Below are positions 1-5,362 of a stretch of DNA of 64,000 nucleotides, piece after piece. Position 1 is the first letter of the stretch. Every line of letters begins with the position of its first letter. The position numbers were made by a program, and so were the translations under genes. The notes under the pieces were generated by a model. The model had not been told where the DNA came from, searched no databases, and saw nothing but the letters and a program-made list of their open reading frames with translations. The stretch lies in NCBI GenBank assembly GCA_963813335.1, contig CAWEYL010000002.1, forward strand, positions 1-64,000, read 5' to 3'. The stretch is from an uncultured Chloroflexia bacterium (GTDB lineage Bacteria > Chloroflexota > Limnocylindria > Limnocylindrales > CSP1-4).

Positions 1-29
1 TGACCGGTTAGGTGCGGCGTCCCTATAGT
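1..29 (+). promoter_or_regulatory. sigma70-type promoter upstream of the riboswitch
   Basis: TATAGT at 24-29. TGACC at 1-5 would be a -35 box truncated by the window edge, 18 nt upstream. Confidence 0.55.
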
Positions 30-56
30 CCGGCCACTTCGTAGTACTCCGGTACT

Positions 57-146
57 AGGAAGCAATGTAAAGACGCTCGGACGCGCCGAAGCACCACCTG
101 AAATGGGCACTTAGGGTGGAGCGGAGCGAGTAGTGCAACCGACCGA
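57..146 (+). promoter_or_regulatory. c-di-GMP-II riboswitch
   Basis: GGAAGCAATG ... AAATGGGCACTT ... GAGCGAGTAGTGCAACCGACC matches the class II hallmark elements, including the GCAC/GTGC pseudoknot. It lies upstream of an HD-GYP gene. Confidence 0.9.
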
Positions 147-167
147 CCACGAGTCTGGTCGGTTTTC
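137..167 (+). terminator. intrinsic terminator (riboswitch expression platform)
   Basis: Stem ACCGACCA (142-149) / TGGTCGGT (156-163) followed by TTTC. It overlaps the 3' end of the aptamer (AACCGACC 137-144). Confidence 0.7.
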
Positions 168-206
168 GTGTTCCCAGAGCACGAGGGCCGCAAAGGAGGT
201 ACGAGC

Positions 207-260
207 GTGACTGCAGAGTCCGCCAAGGGCTGGACCCCCGTGTCCGCCAAGGGCTGGTAG
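207..260 (+). CDS. micro-ORF 1, 17 aa MTAESAKGWTPVSAKGW (two SAKGW units)
   Basis: Strong Shine-Dalgarno AAAGGAGGT (192-200) 6 nt before GTG 207; TAG at 258-260. Too short for the ORF track. Confidence 0.65.
   Translation: MTAESAKGWTPVSAKGW
218..257 (+). repeat. 16-nt direct repeat GTCCGCCAAGGGCTGG x2 (period 24 nt)
   Basis: Exact copies at 218-233 and 242-257, in frame within micro-ORF 1. Confidence 0.95.
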
Positions 261-271
261 GTAGCCCGGCC

Positions 272-361
272 GTGAAGGCCAAAGTTCTCCGGGTCATCGT
301 TACGCTCTCGAGCGTGGCGATGATCGCAGCCGCAGGTGGAGCTTCTCTGAGAGGCTTCTAG
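272..361 (+). CDS. micro-ORF 2, 29 aa MKAKVLRVIVTLSSVAMIAAAGGASLRGF, signal-peptide-like precursor
   Basis: GTG 272 to TAG 359-361, with AGGT upstream at 259-262. Basic N-region, hydrophobic core, AGGA, then a short tail SLRGF. Confidence 0.7.
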   Translation: MKAKVLRVIVTLSSVAMIAAAGGASLRGF

Positions 362-371
362 TACGTTGGTC

Positions 372-417
372 CCATTACCCCAGGGAACTCGGAGGGGATA
401 GAGTTCCGGGGTAGTGG
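372..417 (+). other. long intergenic stem-loop
   Basis: CCATTACCCC/GGGGTAGTGG plus GGAACTC/GAGTTCC, with loop GGAGGGGATA. No U-tract. Confidence 0.75.
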
Positions 418-437
418 ATCAGCGAACAAGGCAGTCG

Positions 438-1837
438 ATGCCGAAGTCCCTGAAGCTTTACATCGCTGGAGTCGTGGCTCTGAGCGCGATTGCGCTCGTG
501 GCTGCGACTCTTGTGATTCCAGTCGACCCGAAGATCGCCATCGCTATTCGACCGTCGGGAGCCCAACTGGAAACCAAGTGTCCTCGGGGTCGCGTTCTGG
601 ACCCTGCTGACCCTCCTTGGCTCAGCATTGCCCGTTCACCTGCCGCGCGGGACACAGCACGCGGTGGCAATTGCCCCGATCCTCGGGGTCGTGTTTCTTG
701 GCGGTCCAACGGTTGGGCTGTGGGTGGCTGCGATTGGCACGACTGAGGTGCGGGAGCTTCGGGGCCGAATCCCTTGGTACGGCACCCTCGCGAATCACGC
801 GGGTCTCGTCATTCCGGCCGTCGTCGCAGGTCTCGTTCGCCACGGCTCCTGTCCGTCGCGAATGACCCGCAGGCGACTTCATGGCGGCGATGGTCTCGGC
901 GGGCGTCTTCCTCGTGTTGAACCTGATGCTCGCTTCGATTCTGCTTGGCCTACGAACGGGGCAACGAGTCTCCGAGGTGACGATTGGCGACTTGAGGGGG
1001 ATCGCTGGAAGCTGGGTGGCGCTCGCGCCTCTCGCATGGTTGATGTCCACCATCTACTTGGTTCAGTGGTGGGCCACCGTCCTGTTCGCTATCCCCTTGT
1101 ACTCGACTCGATTCGCGTTCCAGGGGTTCGTCGAGATGCGCGAGATGTTCGAGCAGACCATCGGCGCGCTCGCCGAGGCCGTCGACAAGCGCGACCCTTA
1201 TACGTCGCTGCACAGCCATCGCGTCAAGGAGATCGCCGTCGACATCGGCCGGGTCATGCGCGTCAACGACGCCGAGCTGGAGGCCCTCAACTGGGGCGGC
1301 CTGCTCCATGACGTCGGCAAGATCGGCGTCCCTGACAACGTCCTGCTGAAGCAGGAGCGGCTCAACAGGGAAGAGCGGATGATCATGAATGCGCACCCCG
1401 TCCTGGGCGCACAGATCATCGCCCCGGTCACGAAGCTGGCCCCCGAGCTGCCGATCATCCGGCACCACCACGAGTGGTACAACGGCTCCGGCTACCCGGA
1501 TCGGCTCATCGGCGACGAGATCCCCAAGCTCGCGCGGGTCCTCCATGTCGCCGACGCCTTCGAGGCCATGACCGCCGCGCGCCCGTACCGCATGACGCCG
1601 CTGACGACCGAGCAGGCGCTCGCCGAGCTCCGCAAGTTCGCCGGCGTGCAGTTCGACCCGGTCGTGGTCGATGCGTTCGTCCGCACCCGCCACGTCGACG
1701 GCGTCCCCGATGCGGGACGGCGACCGGAGCCGCGGCAGATCCCGCTGATCGGTCAGGCCGCGGACACGATGACCGCGAGCGCCCGGACCGACGAACCGAC
1801 CACGGCCGCGGCGAAGGCCGCCCCAGAGCGGGTCTGA
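438..1837 (+). CDS. HD-GYP c-di-GMP phosphodiesterase with N-terminal multi-TM sensor domain (two apparent frameshifts, ~590 and ~860)
   Basis: LLHDVGKIG and HHHEWYNGSGYP motifs. The hydrophobic N-terminus is distributed over ORFs 414-746, 628-1311 and 881-1837 in three frames. Confidence 0.88.
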
Positions 1838-1946: not shown

Positions 1947-3941
1947 GTGCTGAGCATCGGGATCATCCTCGGCCTCGTCCTCGGCCTGCTCGCCGGCGGC
2001 AGCCTGCTCAACCTCGCGTCCGTTCGACTGCGCTGGGTCTCGCTGATCGCGGCAGCCGTCCTCATCCGCTTCGGGACGGAGGCGGCCCTCATCGCGGGGC
2101 TCCCGTTGGCCGAGACGCTCCGGGTGCCATTGCTCGCCGCCTCGTTCGGGATCCTGCTCGTCGGCTTGTGGGCCAACCGCTCCTACCCGGGCTTGACGCT
2201 CGCCTTCGTCGGCATCCTGTCCAATGGGCTGGTCATCGTCGTCAACGGCGGGTACATGCCGATCTGGGAGCCGAGCCTTGTCGCCGCCGGCCTGAGCCCA
2301 GCCGATGTCTCGCCGCAGATCCATACCCTGTACGGGCCGGAGCTGGGGCCGTTCCTCCTCCATCTCGGGCCGCTCGCCGACATCATCCCGATCCCGTTCC
2401 CACTGATCCAGAACGTGGCATCGATGGGCGACGTCTTCCTGACGGCCGGCCTTGCCCTGTTCCTGTTCGCGAGCGTCGTTCGCGTGCCGAGCGACCTCGA
2501 CGACGAGGAGGCGGCGCGCATCCGCTCGCGGCTCGGGGCGATCAATACGGGGGAGACGGGCCTGTCGCCCGCATTCGCCGAGGCGGCGGCGCTCGAGCGC
2601 CAGATCGTCGTGGGCAGTCGTCGCGGCGGTCTTGCCTCTCCTGCCCGCTCCACGATCCCGCTCGAACGGCCCGAGGTCGCGGCGCGCATCCGGCGGCACC
2701 CCTATGTCCGGCTGGCCCTCAACGGGTCGTTCTCGGCGCTGTGGGTCGGGCAGCTCATCTCGCTGTTCGGTGACCGGATCCACCAGTTCGCGCTCGCCGC
2801 GCTGGTCCTGGCAACGACCGGCTCGACCGTCGCGGCCGGGCTCTCGTTCTTCTTCGCCGCCCTGCCGAACCTGTTCCTGTCGCCGGTCGCCGGCACGTTC
2901 GTCGACCGCTGGGACCGCAAGGAAGTCCTGATCGTCAGCGACATCCTGCGCGCTGCCGTCGTCCTGCTGATCCCGATCGCGGCGATCACCAACGTCTTGC
3001 TGGTCTACCCGATGATCTTCGTGGTGACCTCGATCTCGATCTTCTTCCGGCCTGCGCGGGTCGCGATCCTGCCGCAGCTCGTGGAAGACGACGAGCTCGT
3101 GACGGCCAACTCGGCCCTGTGGGTCGGCGAGACCATCGCCGATGTCCTGAGCTTCCCGGTGGCCGGCCTGTTCGTCGCGTTCCTCGCCAATGCCCTGCCG
3201 CTCGCGTTCTGGCTCGACGCCGTGACCTACCTGGCCTCCGCGGTGCTGCTCGGGACGATCGTGGTCCGACCCGCAGCGGCCCGCGGCGTCGACGCCGAGG
3301 CGACGGCCACCGACCCCGCGCAGCTGACGACCGGGTTCGTGGCGGAGCTCAAGGCGGGCTGGCGGTTCCTGCGCGGCGACACGACGCTGCTGGCCAACAC
3401 GATCCAGGCCGCGATCGCCCAGGTCGCGGTCGGCGTGCTGCTGGCGATCACCTCTGTCTGGGCCCTCCAGGTCTTCAGCGGCGCGAGCATCGGCTGGGAA
3501 GGTGCCTGGGGCATGGTCGAGGCGGGCTCGGCGGCGGGGAACATCCTCGGCGGTCTCGCGATCGGGCTCGTCGGGGCGCGCGTGCTGAAGGGCCGGCTGA
3601 TCATCGCCGGCTATGCGGTCTGGGGCTTCCTCACGATCCTGCTGGCGATGTCCAACGACCTCCCGCTCGCCGTGGGGATCTCGTTCGGAGCCGGGATCGC
3701 GAACATGGCCTTCATCATCCCGAGCCAGGCGCTCTTCCAGCAGCGCACGCCGGCCAACCTGATGGGCCGGGTGGTGAGCTTCCGGTTCGCGCTGGTCTTC
3801 GGGTCCATGACGCTGGCGATGGGGGTCGGGTCGATCATGACCGCGTTCGTGCCGGCGGCGACGGTGATCGCGCTGGGCGGGTTCGTCGCGATGGTCGCCG
3901 GCCTGTCCGGGCTGTTCGTGCCGGCCCTCCGCGACGCGTGA
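1947..3941 (+). CDS. DUF5317-like membrane domain fused to an MFS transporter
   Basis: N-terminal motifs NGLVIVVNGGYMP and LADIIP...SMGD. C-terminal multi-TM MFS with GQLISLFGD and motif A GTFVDRWDRK. Confidence 0.8.
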   Translation: MLSIGIILGLVLGLLAGGSLLNLASVRLRWVSLIAAAVLIRFGTEAALIAGLPLAETLRVPLLAASFGILLVGLWANRSYPGLTLAFVGILSNGLVIVVNGGYMPIWEPSLVAAGLSPADVSPQIHTLYGPELGPFLLHLGPLADIIPIPFPLIQNVASMGDVFLTAGLALFLFASVVRVPSDLDDEEAARIRSRLGAINTGETGLSPAFAEAAALERQIVVGSRRGGLASPARSTIPLERPEVAARIRRHPYVRLALNGSFSALWVGQLISLFGDRIHQFALAALVLATTGSTVAAGLSFFFAALPNLFLSPVAGTFVDRWDRKEVLIVSDILRAAVVLLIPIAAITNVLLVYPMIFVVTSISIFFRPARVAILPQLVEDDELVTANSALWVGETIADVLSFPVAGLFVAFLANALPLAFWLDAVTYLASAVLLGTIVVRPAAARGVDAEATATDPAQLTTGFVAELKAGWRFLRGDTTLLANTIQAAIAQVAVGVLLAITSVWALQVFSGASIGWEGAWGMVEAGSAAGNILGGLAIGLVGARVLKGRLIIAGYAVWGFLTILLAMSNDLPLAVGISFGAGIANMAFIIPSQALFQQRTPANLMGRVVSFRFALVFGSMTLAMGVGSIMTAFVPAATVIALGGFVAMVAGLSGLFVPALRDA

Positions 3942-4033: not shown

Positions 4034-4655
4034 ATGACTGACCGACCAGAGGGCTCGACGGACGACGAGCTCGAGCCGGCGACCGACGTCGCGGCGGACG
4101 ACGCGGCGCCCGAGCCCGCGCCGGAGCCGGAAGCCGAGCCGGAACCGGAACCGGAAGCCGAGCCGGAGCCGGAGCGAGCCCCTGGACGAGGGCGATGCAG
4201 ACGACGCGGCCGAAGCCGACGACCTCGAGGACCAGGACGAGGAAGAGTCGCTCTATCCCGACGATGTCGTCGCGCCCGTCGCGGCCGCCAGGGGCAAGGC
4301 AGGGGCCGCGGCAGCTCCCCGCGGACCGACGCCGTCGGAGCTCGCCGTCCGCGTCACCGACAACGCATCGAGGTTCTTCGTCATCGCGACGGTGGTCGTC
4401 TTCGTCGGCATCCTGCTGAACGGCGTCCTGCTCGGGAACGGTGGCCTGTTGACGGGCACCCCGACCCCGAAGCCCACACCCGTCGTGACCGCGACGCCGA
4501 TCCCGTCGGCCTCGCCGAGCGCATCGGGGTCCGCCGGCACCTCGGCCTCCCCGTCCGCCTCCGCGTCATCGAGCCCCTCGGCGGCCCCGAGCCCGGCAGC
4601 ATCGCCGTCGGCCTCGCCCTCGGCCGGACCGAGCGCCTCGCCCAGCCCGTCCTGA
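4034..4655 (+). CDS. single-TM protein with acidic N-terminus and Ser/Pro/Ala/Thr-rich tail (one frameshift ~4180)
   Basis: The EPEPEA N-terminus of ORF 4034 continues in the frame of ORF 4392-4655 (TM FFVIATVVVFVGILL, SASPS tail). TACACT -10 at 3967-3972. Confidence 0.6.
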
Positions 4656-4684
4656 CCGCGCCAGCGCGGGCGTATGCTCGCGCC

Positions 4685-5362
4685 ATGGACGGCCCGACGG
4701 CCGAGACGACCACCGACGACCGCGCCCGGCGGGCGCGCGAGCGGATGGTGGCCGACCAGCTCCGTGGCCGCGGCGTCCGCGATGAGCGCGTGCTGCGCGC
4801 GATGGGCGAGATCCCGCGCGAGCGGTTCGTCGAAGTCGGGGACCCTCGACGGGCTTATGCCGACGAGGCGCTCCCGATCGAGCTCGGCCAGACCATCAGC
4901 CAGCCCTTCATGGTCGGCAGGATGACCGAGCTGCTGGCCCTCCGACCGGGGGACCGCGTCCTCGAGATCGGGACCGGCTCCGGCTACCAGGCCGCGATCC
5001 TCGCGGCCCTCGGTTGCCTGGTGACGACGATCGAGCGCCACGCCGACCTGGCCGAAGCGGCTCGGTCCAGGCTGGCGGCCCTTGGCTACGGCGACACGAT
5101 CGAGGTCATCGTGGCGGACGGCAGCCTTGGCTGGCCGAGCGGCGCGCCTTGGGACGGCATCCTGGTCGCGGCCGCCGCCCCGTTCGTCCCGAACGCGCTG
5201 CGTGACCAGCTCGCGGACGGGGCCCGGCTGGTCATCCCTGTCGGCCCGCGCGACCGCCAGATGCTGACCGTGGTGACCCGGCACGGGAACGACTGGACCG
5301 AAGTCCCGGACGGCGCCTGCGTGTTCGTCCCGCTCGTCGGCGCCGGCGGCTACGGGGGGTGA
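4685..5362 (+). CDS. pcm: protein-L-isoaspartate O-methyltransferase
   Basis: GQTISQP, VLEIGTGSGYQAA and CVFVPL motifs. ATG 4685 lies 6 nt after TATGCT. Confidence 0.93.
   Translation: MDGPTAETTTDDRARRARERMVADQLRGRGVRDERVLRAMGEIPRERFVEVGDPRRAYADEALPIELGQTISQPFMVGRMTELLALRPGDRVLEIGTGSGYQAAILAALGCLVTTIERHADLAEAARSRLAALGYGDTIEVIVADGSLGWPSGAPWDGILVAAAAPFVPNALRDQLADGARLVIPVGPRDRQMLTVVTRHGNDWTEVPDGACVFVPLVGAGGYGG

Follow-up and report, generated by a model that had tools for sequence, protein, structure and literature searches.

We describe a locus at the very beginning of a 64,000-nucleotide stretch of DNA, hereafter the window, from an uncultured Chloroflexia bacterium, in which two very short open reading frames (ORFs), ORF1 and ORF2, stand between a riboswitch for the second messenger cyclic di-GMP (c-di-GMP) and a gene for a predicted c-di-GMP phosphodiesterase. 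Our main finding is that ORF2, a frame of only 29 codons with the translation MKAKVLRVIVTLSSVAMIAAAGGASLRGF, is a genuine coding gene under protein-level selection, and that its product carries the same kind of C-terminal end as the still shorter peptide encoded by ORF1. The order of elements in the window is c-di-GMP-II riboswitch, ORF1, ORF2, a hairpin, a MASE9-HD-GYP gene and a gene in which a DUF5317 domain is joined to a transporter of the major facilitator superfamily (DUF5317-MFS; Table 1). Judged from its sequence, the locus appears to hold a riboswitch-controlled micro-protein and pro-peptide-like small ORFs that match no described family. The assembly that yielded the window comprises 2.54 Mb in 7 contigs and is 81% complete. 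The window covers the first 64 kb of contig 2, and since this contig begins only 69 bases 5' of the riboswitch, the upstream context was taken from relatives. Literature searches found no description of such a riboswitch/micro-ORF/HD-GYP locus, nothing on DUF5317, and nothing on Limnocylindria combined with c-di-GMP.

ORF2 is a coding gene under protein-level selection

A preliminary description of this DNA, made from its letters, had taken the segment that we call ORF2 for a real 29-residue frame ending in AGGASLRGF. The translation from GTG to TAG agrees with that proposal, and codon-position statistics identify the frame as coding. We read 26 loci of the same genus downstream of the riboswitch, where both small ORFs reappear in matching positions, and found an intact 29-codon ORF2 in 18, where the column entropy summed to 16.3, 7.7 and 36.6 at codon positions 1, 2 and 3, respectively; the other 8 loci, mostly in few-contig assemblies, had single-base frameshifts or, once, an in-frame stop. 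A larger set comprised 108 rows, that is, 107 distinct loci and one reverse-strand artefact row, and ORF2 was intact (26-36 residues) in 91 rows, the remaining ones being frameshifted or carrying an in-frame stop, again mostly in few-contig assemblies. Codon statistics on 91 distinct 29-codon DNA versions gave entropies of 21.8, 11.8 and 41.2 for the three positions. Moreover, in codons 21-29, which encode AGGASLRGF, we counted 394 synonymous but only 21 non-synonymous departures from the consensus codon, the synonymous ones including AGR/CGN arginine switches and serine changes, both among TCN codons and of the TCN/AGY kind. So many synonymous differences exclude a single recent clone, and constraint at the RNA level cannot account for the third-position, synonymous pattern of the tail. 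Thus, we conclude that ORF2 is a genuine gene whose protein product is under selection.

Comparison between genera revealed which parts of the protein are kept. The hydrophobic core varies freely (…TLSSVAMIALA…, …ALSAVAALALA…, …AAGAIAAIALA…, …SLATLATLAIA…), whereas the N-terminus stays basic and A-L-A-G-G-A-S-[LIV]-[K/R]-G-[F/W] is retained as the end; within the genus the whole hydrophobic part looks conserved because of relatedness. Among database representatives the residue at position -3 of the tail can also be Q, T, S or N, and the steadiest letters are AGGAS-L-x-G-F. The shape of a signal peptide, noted in the preliminary description, was borne out on inspection by the usual rule of thumb for Sec and signal peptidase I substrates: K2, K/R4 and R7 are followed by an uncharged core and by small residues at -3 and -1 of a possible cut, and since the peptide contains no Cys, the absence of a lipobox Cys holds as well. 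For a cut after GGA, which would release the pentapeptide proposed earlier, G22 and A24 are present in all 91 versions; for an AXA-type cut after ALA, which would give GGASLRGF and fits as well, A21 is found in 89 of 91 (one version has S and one has T) and A19 in 87. The genome encodes signal peptidase I (155.7 bits). That the core changes between genera while ALAGGAS-L-[KR]-G-[FW] is kept agrees with the earlier idea of a signal peptide with a cargo. Read from sequence, however, the pattern fits two designs equally, a signal peptide whose cut site and cargo are conserved and an uncleaved signal-anchor with a working tail.

No NCBIfam family matched ORF2 at E <= 1, and in Pfam-A no family exceeded its cut-off, PSII_Ycf12 being the only match with 14.6 bits against a cut-off of 24; by these profile comparisons the micro-protein is in no described family. 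The idea that ORF2 duplicates the first helix of the HD-GYP protein was rejected, the hhalign probability being 4%.

ORF1 encodes a sister peptide with the same kind of end

In the window, ORF1 starts with a GTG codon at 207, 7 nucleotides past the Shine-Dalgarno sequence AAAGGAGG, and encodes the 17-residue peptide VTAESAKGWTPVSAKGW, which ends in KGW. The 15-nucleotide word TCCGCCAAGGGCTGG occurs in it twice, at 219-233 and 243-257, where 0.01 matches would be expected by chance, and the SAKGW ending noticed previously stands in the peptide twice. We based the ORF1 statistics on 82 distinct versions that were chosen for ending in K-x-aromatic; these are 9 residues long in 22 cases, 10 in 56 and 17 in 4. 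The in-frame doubling is confined to the last class (the window and relatives L004, L019 and L080), and the repeat unit is the whole 8-residue peptide. The start codon is GTG in 70 of the 82 versions, the start lies 7 nucleotides past GGAGG in 62, and position 3 is P in 62 and position 4 is E in 66. Chosen as they were, all 82 have K at -3, which is followed by G, A, P or S at -2 and by a last residue that is W in 71, F in 7 and Y in 4; among all 108 rows, 98 end in K-x-[W/F/Y]-stop.

The terminal motif shared by the two ORFs had been held to exceed chance, and indeed both keep it across two families. The proposed match to SAKGW has to be narrowed, since the K-[GAPS]-[WFY] end is conserved while the serine is not conserved in ORF1. 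Final residues of ORF1 and ORF2 pair as W/F in 73 cases, F/F in 6, Y/F in 4, W/W in 3 and W/I in 1, in which independent changes are too few to call co-variation. ORF1 has no hydrophobic part and yet has the same kind of end as ORF2, which points to the tail as the active determinant in both peptides.

The stop codon of ORF1 and the start of ORF2 are 11 nucleotides apart in the window and about 5-16 nucleotides apart in the genus. ORF1 stops at TAG in 67 versions, at TAA in 15 and at TGA in 0 of 82, and ORF2 at TAG in 86 and at TGA in 5 of 91, whereas the 35 long ORFs of the window use TGA 23 times and TAG 12 times. TGA is thus nearly absent from the stops of both ORFs among related genomes, which are not independent.

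A c-di-GMP-II riboswitch precedes both ORFs

The preliminary description had overlooked a c-di-GMP-II riboswitch ahead of the whole unit. The aptamer belongs to RF01786, with a covariance-model score above the curated gathering score over the full length of the model, and it is the sole match in the genome. Among 36 other genomes of the genus we found the riboswitch in 27, and among 24 of a small-genome sister family in none; among 61 genomes sampled from the genus and the sister family, 25 exceed the RF01786 cut-off. An intrinsic terminator overlaps the aptamer at 141-153, its 5' arm being identical with the 3' strand of P1, the outer helix of the aptamer. Since these strands are shared, the ligand should block the terminator, and we infer an ON switch that reads through when c-di-GMP is bound.

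The distance between riboswitch and ORF2 is well kept. When 80 loci were searched with a strict pattern, 77 had the riboswitch core about 105-130 nucleotides upstream of ORF2. Two of the loci missed carry a one-letter variant, and the third starts too late. In the window, ORF2 starts 119 nucleotides past the end of the riboswitch. Four relatives (loci L028-L031 in G014, G027, G005 and G016) carry sub-threshold c-di-GMP-II-like matches of 39.7-50.4 bits that lead straight into genes for signal-peptide-bearing, secreted proteins of about 140-300 residues, without micro-ORFs. Such weak sites may represent a diverged riboswitch subclass, and since they lack micro-ORFs, the latter belong to the HD-GYP locus only.

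Upstream of the aptamer, the promoter of the unit was recognised by eye in an upstream alignment of about 85 relatives, in which GATAGGTAAGGTGCCGTA-TTGACC-N17/18-TA[TAGC]AGT is kept. A consensus promoter scan of 1-600 returned no promoter-like site, because the first base of the window cuts the -35 element. The near-invariant box GATAGGTAAGGTGCCGTA adjoins the -35 TTGACC, about 20-40 nucleotides upstream of it in relatives (e.g. L003-L121), whereas the window starts inside the -35; the box is a likely candidate for the binding site of the BTAD regulator encoded just upstream. Between promoter and aptamer, the palindrome (C/G)TAGTAC...GTACTAG of a leader hairpin is retained in relatives. The word CTTCTAGTAC at 354-363, which comprises the last codon and the stop of ORF2, repeats the 5' arm of this hairpin and could pair with its 3' arm; the repeat is kept within the genus and not in other genera.

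Table 1. Elements of the riboswitch/micro-ORF/HD-GYP locus, in window positions
Feature	Positions	Strand	Details
Promoter of the unit	1-29	+	-35 TTGACC (first T lost at contig start; 1-5), -10 TATAGT (24-29), 18 nucleotides apart
5' leader hairpin	37-62	+	CTTC.GTAGTAC-loop-GTACTAG.GAAG; fold -14.3 kcal/mol, z -3.29, equalled by 0 of 200 shuffles
c-di-GMP-II riboswitch aptamer, RF01786	70-153	+	62.1 bits against gathering score 53.5, E 3.1e-13, model positions 1-84 of 84
Intrinsic terminator hairpin and U-run	141-170	+	site 141-164 followed by TTCGTGTT; fold -15.3 kcal/mol
Shine-Dalgarno sequence and ORF1	192-260	+	AAAGGAGG at 192-199; GTG at 207 to TAG at 260; VTAESAKGWTPVSAKGW, in-frame doubled unit
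ORF2, 29-residue micro-protein	272-361	+	MKAKVLRVIVTLSSVAMIAAAGGASLRGF; GTG, 28 codons, TAG
Long imperfect hairpin	364-424	+	conserved UAGAGU near tip; fold -37.3 kcal/mol, z -5.30, equalled by 0 of 200 shuffles
Gene for MASE9-like membrane domain and HD-GYP (HD_5) c-di-GMP phosphodiesterase	438-1837	+	HD_5 2.4e-38
Gene for DUF5317 domain fused to MFS transporter	1947-3941	+	PF17248 1.4e-22, MFS_1 7.5e-17, MFS_3 6.4e-12

In a phylum sample, ORF2 is found in two families of one class

It had been suggested that homologous small ORFs be sought upstream of homologous HD-GYP genes, and a profile search found many of them. Against 1.84 billion representative proteins the profile matched 138 clusters at E <= 0.001, of which 75 are exactly 29 residues long and the longest is 89; 117 of the 138 end in GG-xx-x-[KRQ]-x-[FWYLI] at the very C-terminus. 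None of these clusters is a fusion to a larger protein. The longer clusters are upstream-extended gene calls, and five fetched members with an N-terminal match read like stop-codon losses or frameshifts. The nearest clusters in the ESM Atlas are unnamed hypothetical proteins of 29-32 residues.

A scan with a back-translated pattern, with one genome per species, found 92 relatives, and the best 80 of these 92, which were kept, are all titled Chloroflexota, mostly 'Candidatus Limnocylindrales' or 'Limnocylindria'. When 401 genomes of the class were searched in six frames with a profile, 110 matched at E <= 0.01, a tally that takes in one weak match in a genome marked unpublished (G150). Divided into the families f1 to f5, the matches were found in 79 of 137 genomes of f1, 29 of 153 of f4 (with weak scores), 0 of 16 of f2, 1 of 92 of f3 and 0 of 2 of f5. 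With a broader profile at E <= 1e-4, 21 of 401 genomes across the phylum matched, all in f1 (12 of 23) or f4 (8 of 16), and there was no ORF2 match in the other 80 families sampled. In the phylum sample ORF2 is therefore confined to two families of one class, Limnocylindria by record titles, and it is mostly single-copy per genome. The gene order regulator, riboswitch, ORF1, ORF2, HD-GYP, DUF5317-MFS is also kept in other genera and in the second family (f4), with synteny preserved across the 20-kb loci of 10 relatives. One relative, L082, differs in that a fragment of HD-GYP coding sequence stands directly 5' of ORF2, where ORF1 and the riboswitch would be expected, while the riboswitch lies about 950 nucleotides farther upstream; either the locus has been rearranged or its assembly is chimeric.

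In three studies, RNA libraries yielded Logan contigs that span ORF1 and ORF2 at a likeness of at least 85%: X15 record 4 covers 202-376, X16 records 12 and 15 cover 193-292 and 268-379, and X17 record 22 covers 180-345. Their loose ends continue into the ORF1 versions of relatives. The depth of such contigs cannot rank transcript parts, and uncovered parts of 551-1100 carry no meaning.

Neighbouring elements of the locus

The hairpin downstream of ORF2 begins 2 nucleotides past the stop codon in the window and 2-10 nucleotides past it in the relatives that were folded. All 18 of these relatives give one long hairpin with differing stem letters, and z is <= -2 in 11 of the 18. The hairpin was assessed by single-sequence folds; RNAalifold on a MAFFT alignment of the intergenic region returned 0 consensus pairs. 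It is not followed by a U-run, and CCAUUACC, GGUAGUGG and the apical UAGAGU recur in the genus (intergenic regions of L046-L120). Judged by its structure and position, it may serve processing, stabilisation or regulation. An internal promoter between ORF2 and the HD-GYP gene was considered, since CCATTACC-N18-TAGAGT resembles the upstream -35 and -10 elements. These letters, however, form the arms and tip of the hairpin, the stems vary between relatives, and a promoter scan found none between the two genes; we therefore favour the hairpin over a promoter.

The HD-GYP gene of the window is split over three frames (from the ATG at 438 onward, 628-1311 and 881-1837). Intact relatives have a single frame of 460-527 residues (42 rows, with some genomes fetched twice), and the split probably reflects single-base assembly errors rather than a pseudogene. 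MASE9 scored 25.3 and 23.4 bits in two intact relatives, against a cut-off of 24.3, and a third relative gave no match at E <= 0.1. A complex prediction for the 32-residue ORF2 homologue of f4 with residues 1-235 of its own HD-GYP protein scored 0.02 against a mark of 0.32, and carries no weight either way.

In the next gene, the DUF5317 domain (1947-2501) keeps N-G-G-x-M-P and two Asp without change in two families, D145 lying within [AG]-D-[IV]-[IF]-P-x-P and D162 within S-x-G-D. The two invariant Asp raised the possibility of an intramembrane protease, a lead that found no support in structure or profile searches: for an AlphaFold2 model of the domain (pLDDT 76.8) Foldseek gave no PDB match at E <= 0.001, the best having an E of 2.8 and the TM score being at most 0.27, and a profile search of PDB sequences yielded nothing, with a best E of 0.43. 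Farther downstream, at 4034-5362, a frame opens with an acidic (P-E/A)n repeat and continues into a C-terminal part resembling protein-L-isoaspartate O-methyltransferase; several long overlapping frames lie around it in a GC-rich stretch.

On the upstream side, relatives encode a large STAND-type regulator with a helical-repeat sensor part and a C-terminal BTAD domain (24.2 bits, with 22.1 as the cut-off). About 100-250 nucleotides separate the end of the regulator gene from the riboswitch, and the adjacency of this gene to the peptide genes is kept in both families. Its frame has at least 729 residues, the 5' end being still open in L049, and conserved coding extends over about 3.2 kb in L032. 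Matches to tetratricopeptide repeats (TPRs) stayed below threshold, with 17.8 bits for TPR_12 (cut-off 30.1) and 16.7 bits for TPR_2 (cut-off 27).

Proposed function and alternatives

Tentatively, and with somewhat less than even confidence, we propose that ORF2 is a micro-protein with its N-terminus inside and its C-terminus outside, which is made at high c-di-GMP and presents its tail to the membrane proteins of the operon. With c-di-GMP bound, the riboswitch would read through its terminator, and the opened switch would yield the soluble 9-10-mer and the 29-mer that shares its end and inserts into the membrane, as well as the MASE9-HD-GYP hydrolase and the DUF5317-MFS protein. As a chain of 29 residues is shorter than the ribosomal tunnel, insertion into the membrane would take place after release. 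Under the well-established positive-inside rule, the three to four positive charges of the N-terminus, against a net-neutral tail, would direct the N-terminus inside and the tail outside. The basic K2, K/R4 and R7 would thus face the cytoplasm, about 17 uncharged residues would cross the membrane, and the invariant A-G-G-A-S-L-[K/R]-G-[F/W]-COOH would lie at the outer face. The tail would be the working part and the hydrophobic stretch would serve for delivery and as a tether. Together with the sister peptide of ORF1 and its K-G-aromatic end, the tail would act on the MASE9-HD-GYP phosphodiesterase and the DUF5317-MFS transporter, and the peptides would tune a negative feedback in which high c-di-GMP turns on its own hydrolase. 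The topology, the uncleaved tail and the partner of ORF2 are features that we infer from its sequence. The authors who defined MASE9 propose that its ligand binds within the membrane (bioRxiv 10.1101/2021.11.05.467447), and a report on Clostridioides difficile describes c-di-GMP riboswitches that govern membrane small proteins of 58 residues with a developmental role (PMC13724677). These published points make our proposal plausible, for the binding of peptide to protein by analogy.

Several points weigh against the tethered micro-protein. The small residues at -3 and -1 fit cleavage by signal peptidase I, and since the genome encodes this enzyme, the tail may come free instead of staying tethered. 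ORF1 lacks an export signal, and a shared receptor outside the cell would need an exporter, which has to be assumed. The avoidance of TGA in both ORFs would not be required by a pure peptide function, although the genomes are related and not independent. Lastly, ORF1 and ORF2 are present in RNA libraries, where DNA carry-over is possible without a silent control stretch.

Cleavage leads to an alternative that we regard as rather unlikely, namely that ORF2 is a minimal pre-peptide of a secreted signal. Signal peptidase I would cut after ALA or GGA and free GGASLRGF or SLRGF, the ORF1 peptide would leave via DUF5317-MFS, and MASE9-HD-GYP would sense both in the producer and in its neighbours, broadcasting high c-di-GMP. 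The n-h-c outline with small residues at -3 and -1 of both candidate sites would be explained, as would the contrast between a variable h-region and a c-region and tail that are invariant between genera. A signal peptidase I gene is at hand in the genome and an MFS_3-type exporter within the operon, the doubled in-frame ORF1 units in 4 of 82 versions recall multi-core precursors, and the peptide genes adjoin a large regulator, as in peptide quorum systems. On the other hand, we know of no Sec precedent for a cargo of 5-8 residues on a 29-residue chain, and the operon holds no processing protease, ATP-binding cassette (ABC) exporter or Opp importer. Still less likely, in our estimate, is peptide communication driven by a second-messenger riboswitch, in which high c-di-GMP would give rise to two peptides with the same tail, one exported by DUF5317-MFS and the other self-delivered through the membrane and cut free; the intramembrane MASE9 of the HD-GYP protein would read both in producer and neighbours, and the c-di-GMP state would be broadcast and equalised across the population. 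Such a quorum circuit, if true, would be of a kind that is not known from any phylum.

We consider it improbable that both ORFs encode arrest or leader peptides, in which [K/R]-G-aromatic-stop would pause ribosomes. A ribosome at the ORF1 stop would mask the start of ORF2, and one at the ORF2 stop would melt the base of the hairpin at 364-424, altering the processing or translation of the HD-GYP message. This would place in one scheme the facts that the feature common to both ORFs sits exactly at the stop codon, that TGA is shunned in both, that the ORF1 stop and the ORF2 start are so close together, and that a conserved hairpin opens a few bases past the ORF2 stop; moreover, the 9-10 codons of ORF1 are within the size range of known short leader peptides. 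Stalling, however, leaves unexplained the basic N-terminus and uncharged core of every ORF2 and the conserved P3-E4 of ORF1. ORF2 in other genera has its own GGAGG and begins up to about 45 nucleotides past ORF1, the HD-GYP ribosome-binding site is outside the hairpin in the folds, and the residue at -3 is Q, T, S or N in some database members.

Quite improbable, too, is a role of the tails as ligands of the upstream regulator. Here they would bind the helical-repeat sensor of the STAND-type BTAD protein, which would drive the promoter of the unit in an RRNPP-like positive loop, ORF1 acting from inside and the ORF2 tail after export and re-import. The regulator directly adjoins the peptide genes in both families, the conserved box GATAGGTAAGGTGCCGTA abuts the -35, and the BTAD match is above its cut-off. 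Against this, the regulator with its at least 729 residues is longer than the 250-500 residues given for RRNPP receptors (PMC10075063), its TPR matches are below threshold (17.8 against 30.1 bits), and there is no linked importer. A chance ORF or a purely RNA-level element without a protein product is hardly credible, because, for all the shortness of the ORF and the repetition of the 5' arm of the relatives' leader hairpin by CTTCTAGTAC at its end, it is contradicted by the excess of synonymous over non-synonymous departures in the tail, and the TAGTAC word is missing in other genera, which still keep the peptide.

Significance

To our knowledge, the importance of small proteins behind c-di-GMP riboswitches was shown only in 2026, and only in one Firmicute. 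The Limnocylindria locus would be an unrelated second case, in an uncultured soil class. Its design is clearer, as two micro-genes with one shared, near-invariant tail stand ahead of the predicted enzyme that destroys the ligand of the riboswitch. MASE9, which has no known ligand, and DUF5317, which has no known function, gain a candidate partner that is accessible to peptide synthesis. More generally, the locus shows that comparative data by themselves allow genes of 9-29 codons to be called with confidence.

Comparison with known systems

Two kinds of processed leader resemble parts of the ORF2 tail, but on the comparisons made here we place ORF2 in neither. In double-glycine leaders the cut is preceded by GG (positions -2/-1), and a gene for a C39-ABC exporter lies close by. 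ORF2 has the GG in all 91 versions, but the operon is without an ABC transporter, the genome beyond the operon not having been searched for C39, and no double-glycine leader family matched at E <= 1 in NCBIfam or Pfam. Type IV prepilin leaders are cut at [K/R]-G before an F, which is followed by an N-methyl hydrophobic pilin domain. In ORF2 a single residue follows the G, and the genome, 81% complete, gave no match to N_methyl (PF07963); a gene for an A24 peptidase is present (51.4 bits).

Phr, PapR, NprX, AimP and SHP are pro-peptides of RRNPP systems, mostly of about 40 residues or longer with a pro-region, and the arbitrium peptides end in -RGA, resembling the -LRGF of ORF2. The five criteria for an RRNPP pair include a pro-peptide of 10-100 residues directly beside the receptor gene and a receptor of 250-500 residues with TPRs detectable by hidden Markov models (PMC10075063). 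At our locus, ORFs of 29 and 9-17 residues have a regulator gene adjacent, but the regulator, with at least 729 residues, exceeds the receptor length. The likeness lies in a small ORF that stands beside a regulator and whose product begins like a signal and ends in a short conserved stretch. In contrast to RRNPP systems, a riboswitch stands between the regulator and the peptide genes, the second peptide has no signal, and the host belongs to Chloroflexota, not Firmicutes.

In C. difficile, c-di-GMP-II ON riboswitches such as that ahead of pilA1 permit expression at high c-di-GMP. Like the pilA1 switch, ours combines a class II aptamer and a terminator in competition with P1; the first cargo here is, however, two micro-ORFs, followed by the predicted hydrolase of the ligand itself. 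The CD1980.2 proteins of the same species have 58 residues with a C-terminal hydrophobic helix, exist as several paralogues under class I OFF riboswitches and promote sporulation, and the report gives no homologues outside C. difficile (PMC13724677). They share with our ORFs that tiny, unannotated membrane-associated proteins are the first genes under transcription termination by a c-di-GMP riboswitch, and that they are restricted to one lineage and have no known domain. ORF2 differs in its 29 residues, its central hydrophobic stretch, its invariant polar-aromatic tail and its mostly single copy, and in a class II riboswitch read as ON, a paired second peptide and an HD-GYP gene next in line. 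Since length, helix position and riboswitch class differ, we set ORF2 apart from the CD1980.2 family, by description and without sequence comparison.

A parallel in size is provided by single-pass regulatory micro-proteins such as KdpF (29 residues), MgrB, AcrZ and MgtS, which have one hydrophobic helix, are encoded in or beside the operon of their partner and hold their specificity in the helix. ORF2 is like these proteins in size, in its single hydrophobic helix and in sharing an operon with membrane proteins, among which its partner is predicted here. Unlike in these proteins, the helix of ORF2 varies between genera, whereas its last nine residues are fixed.

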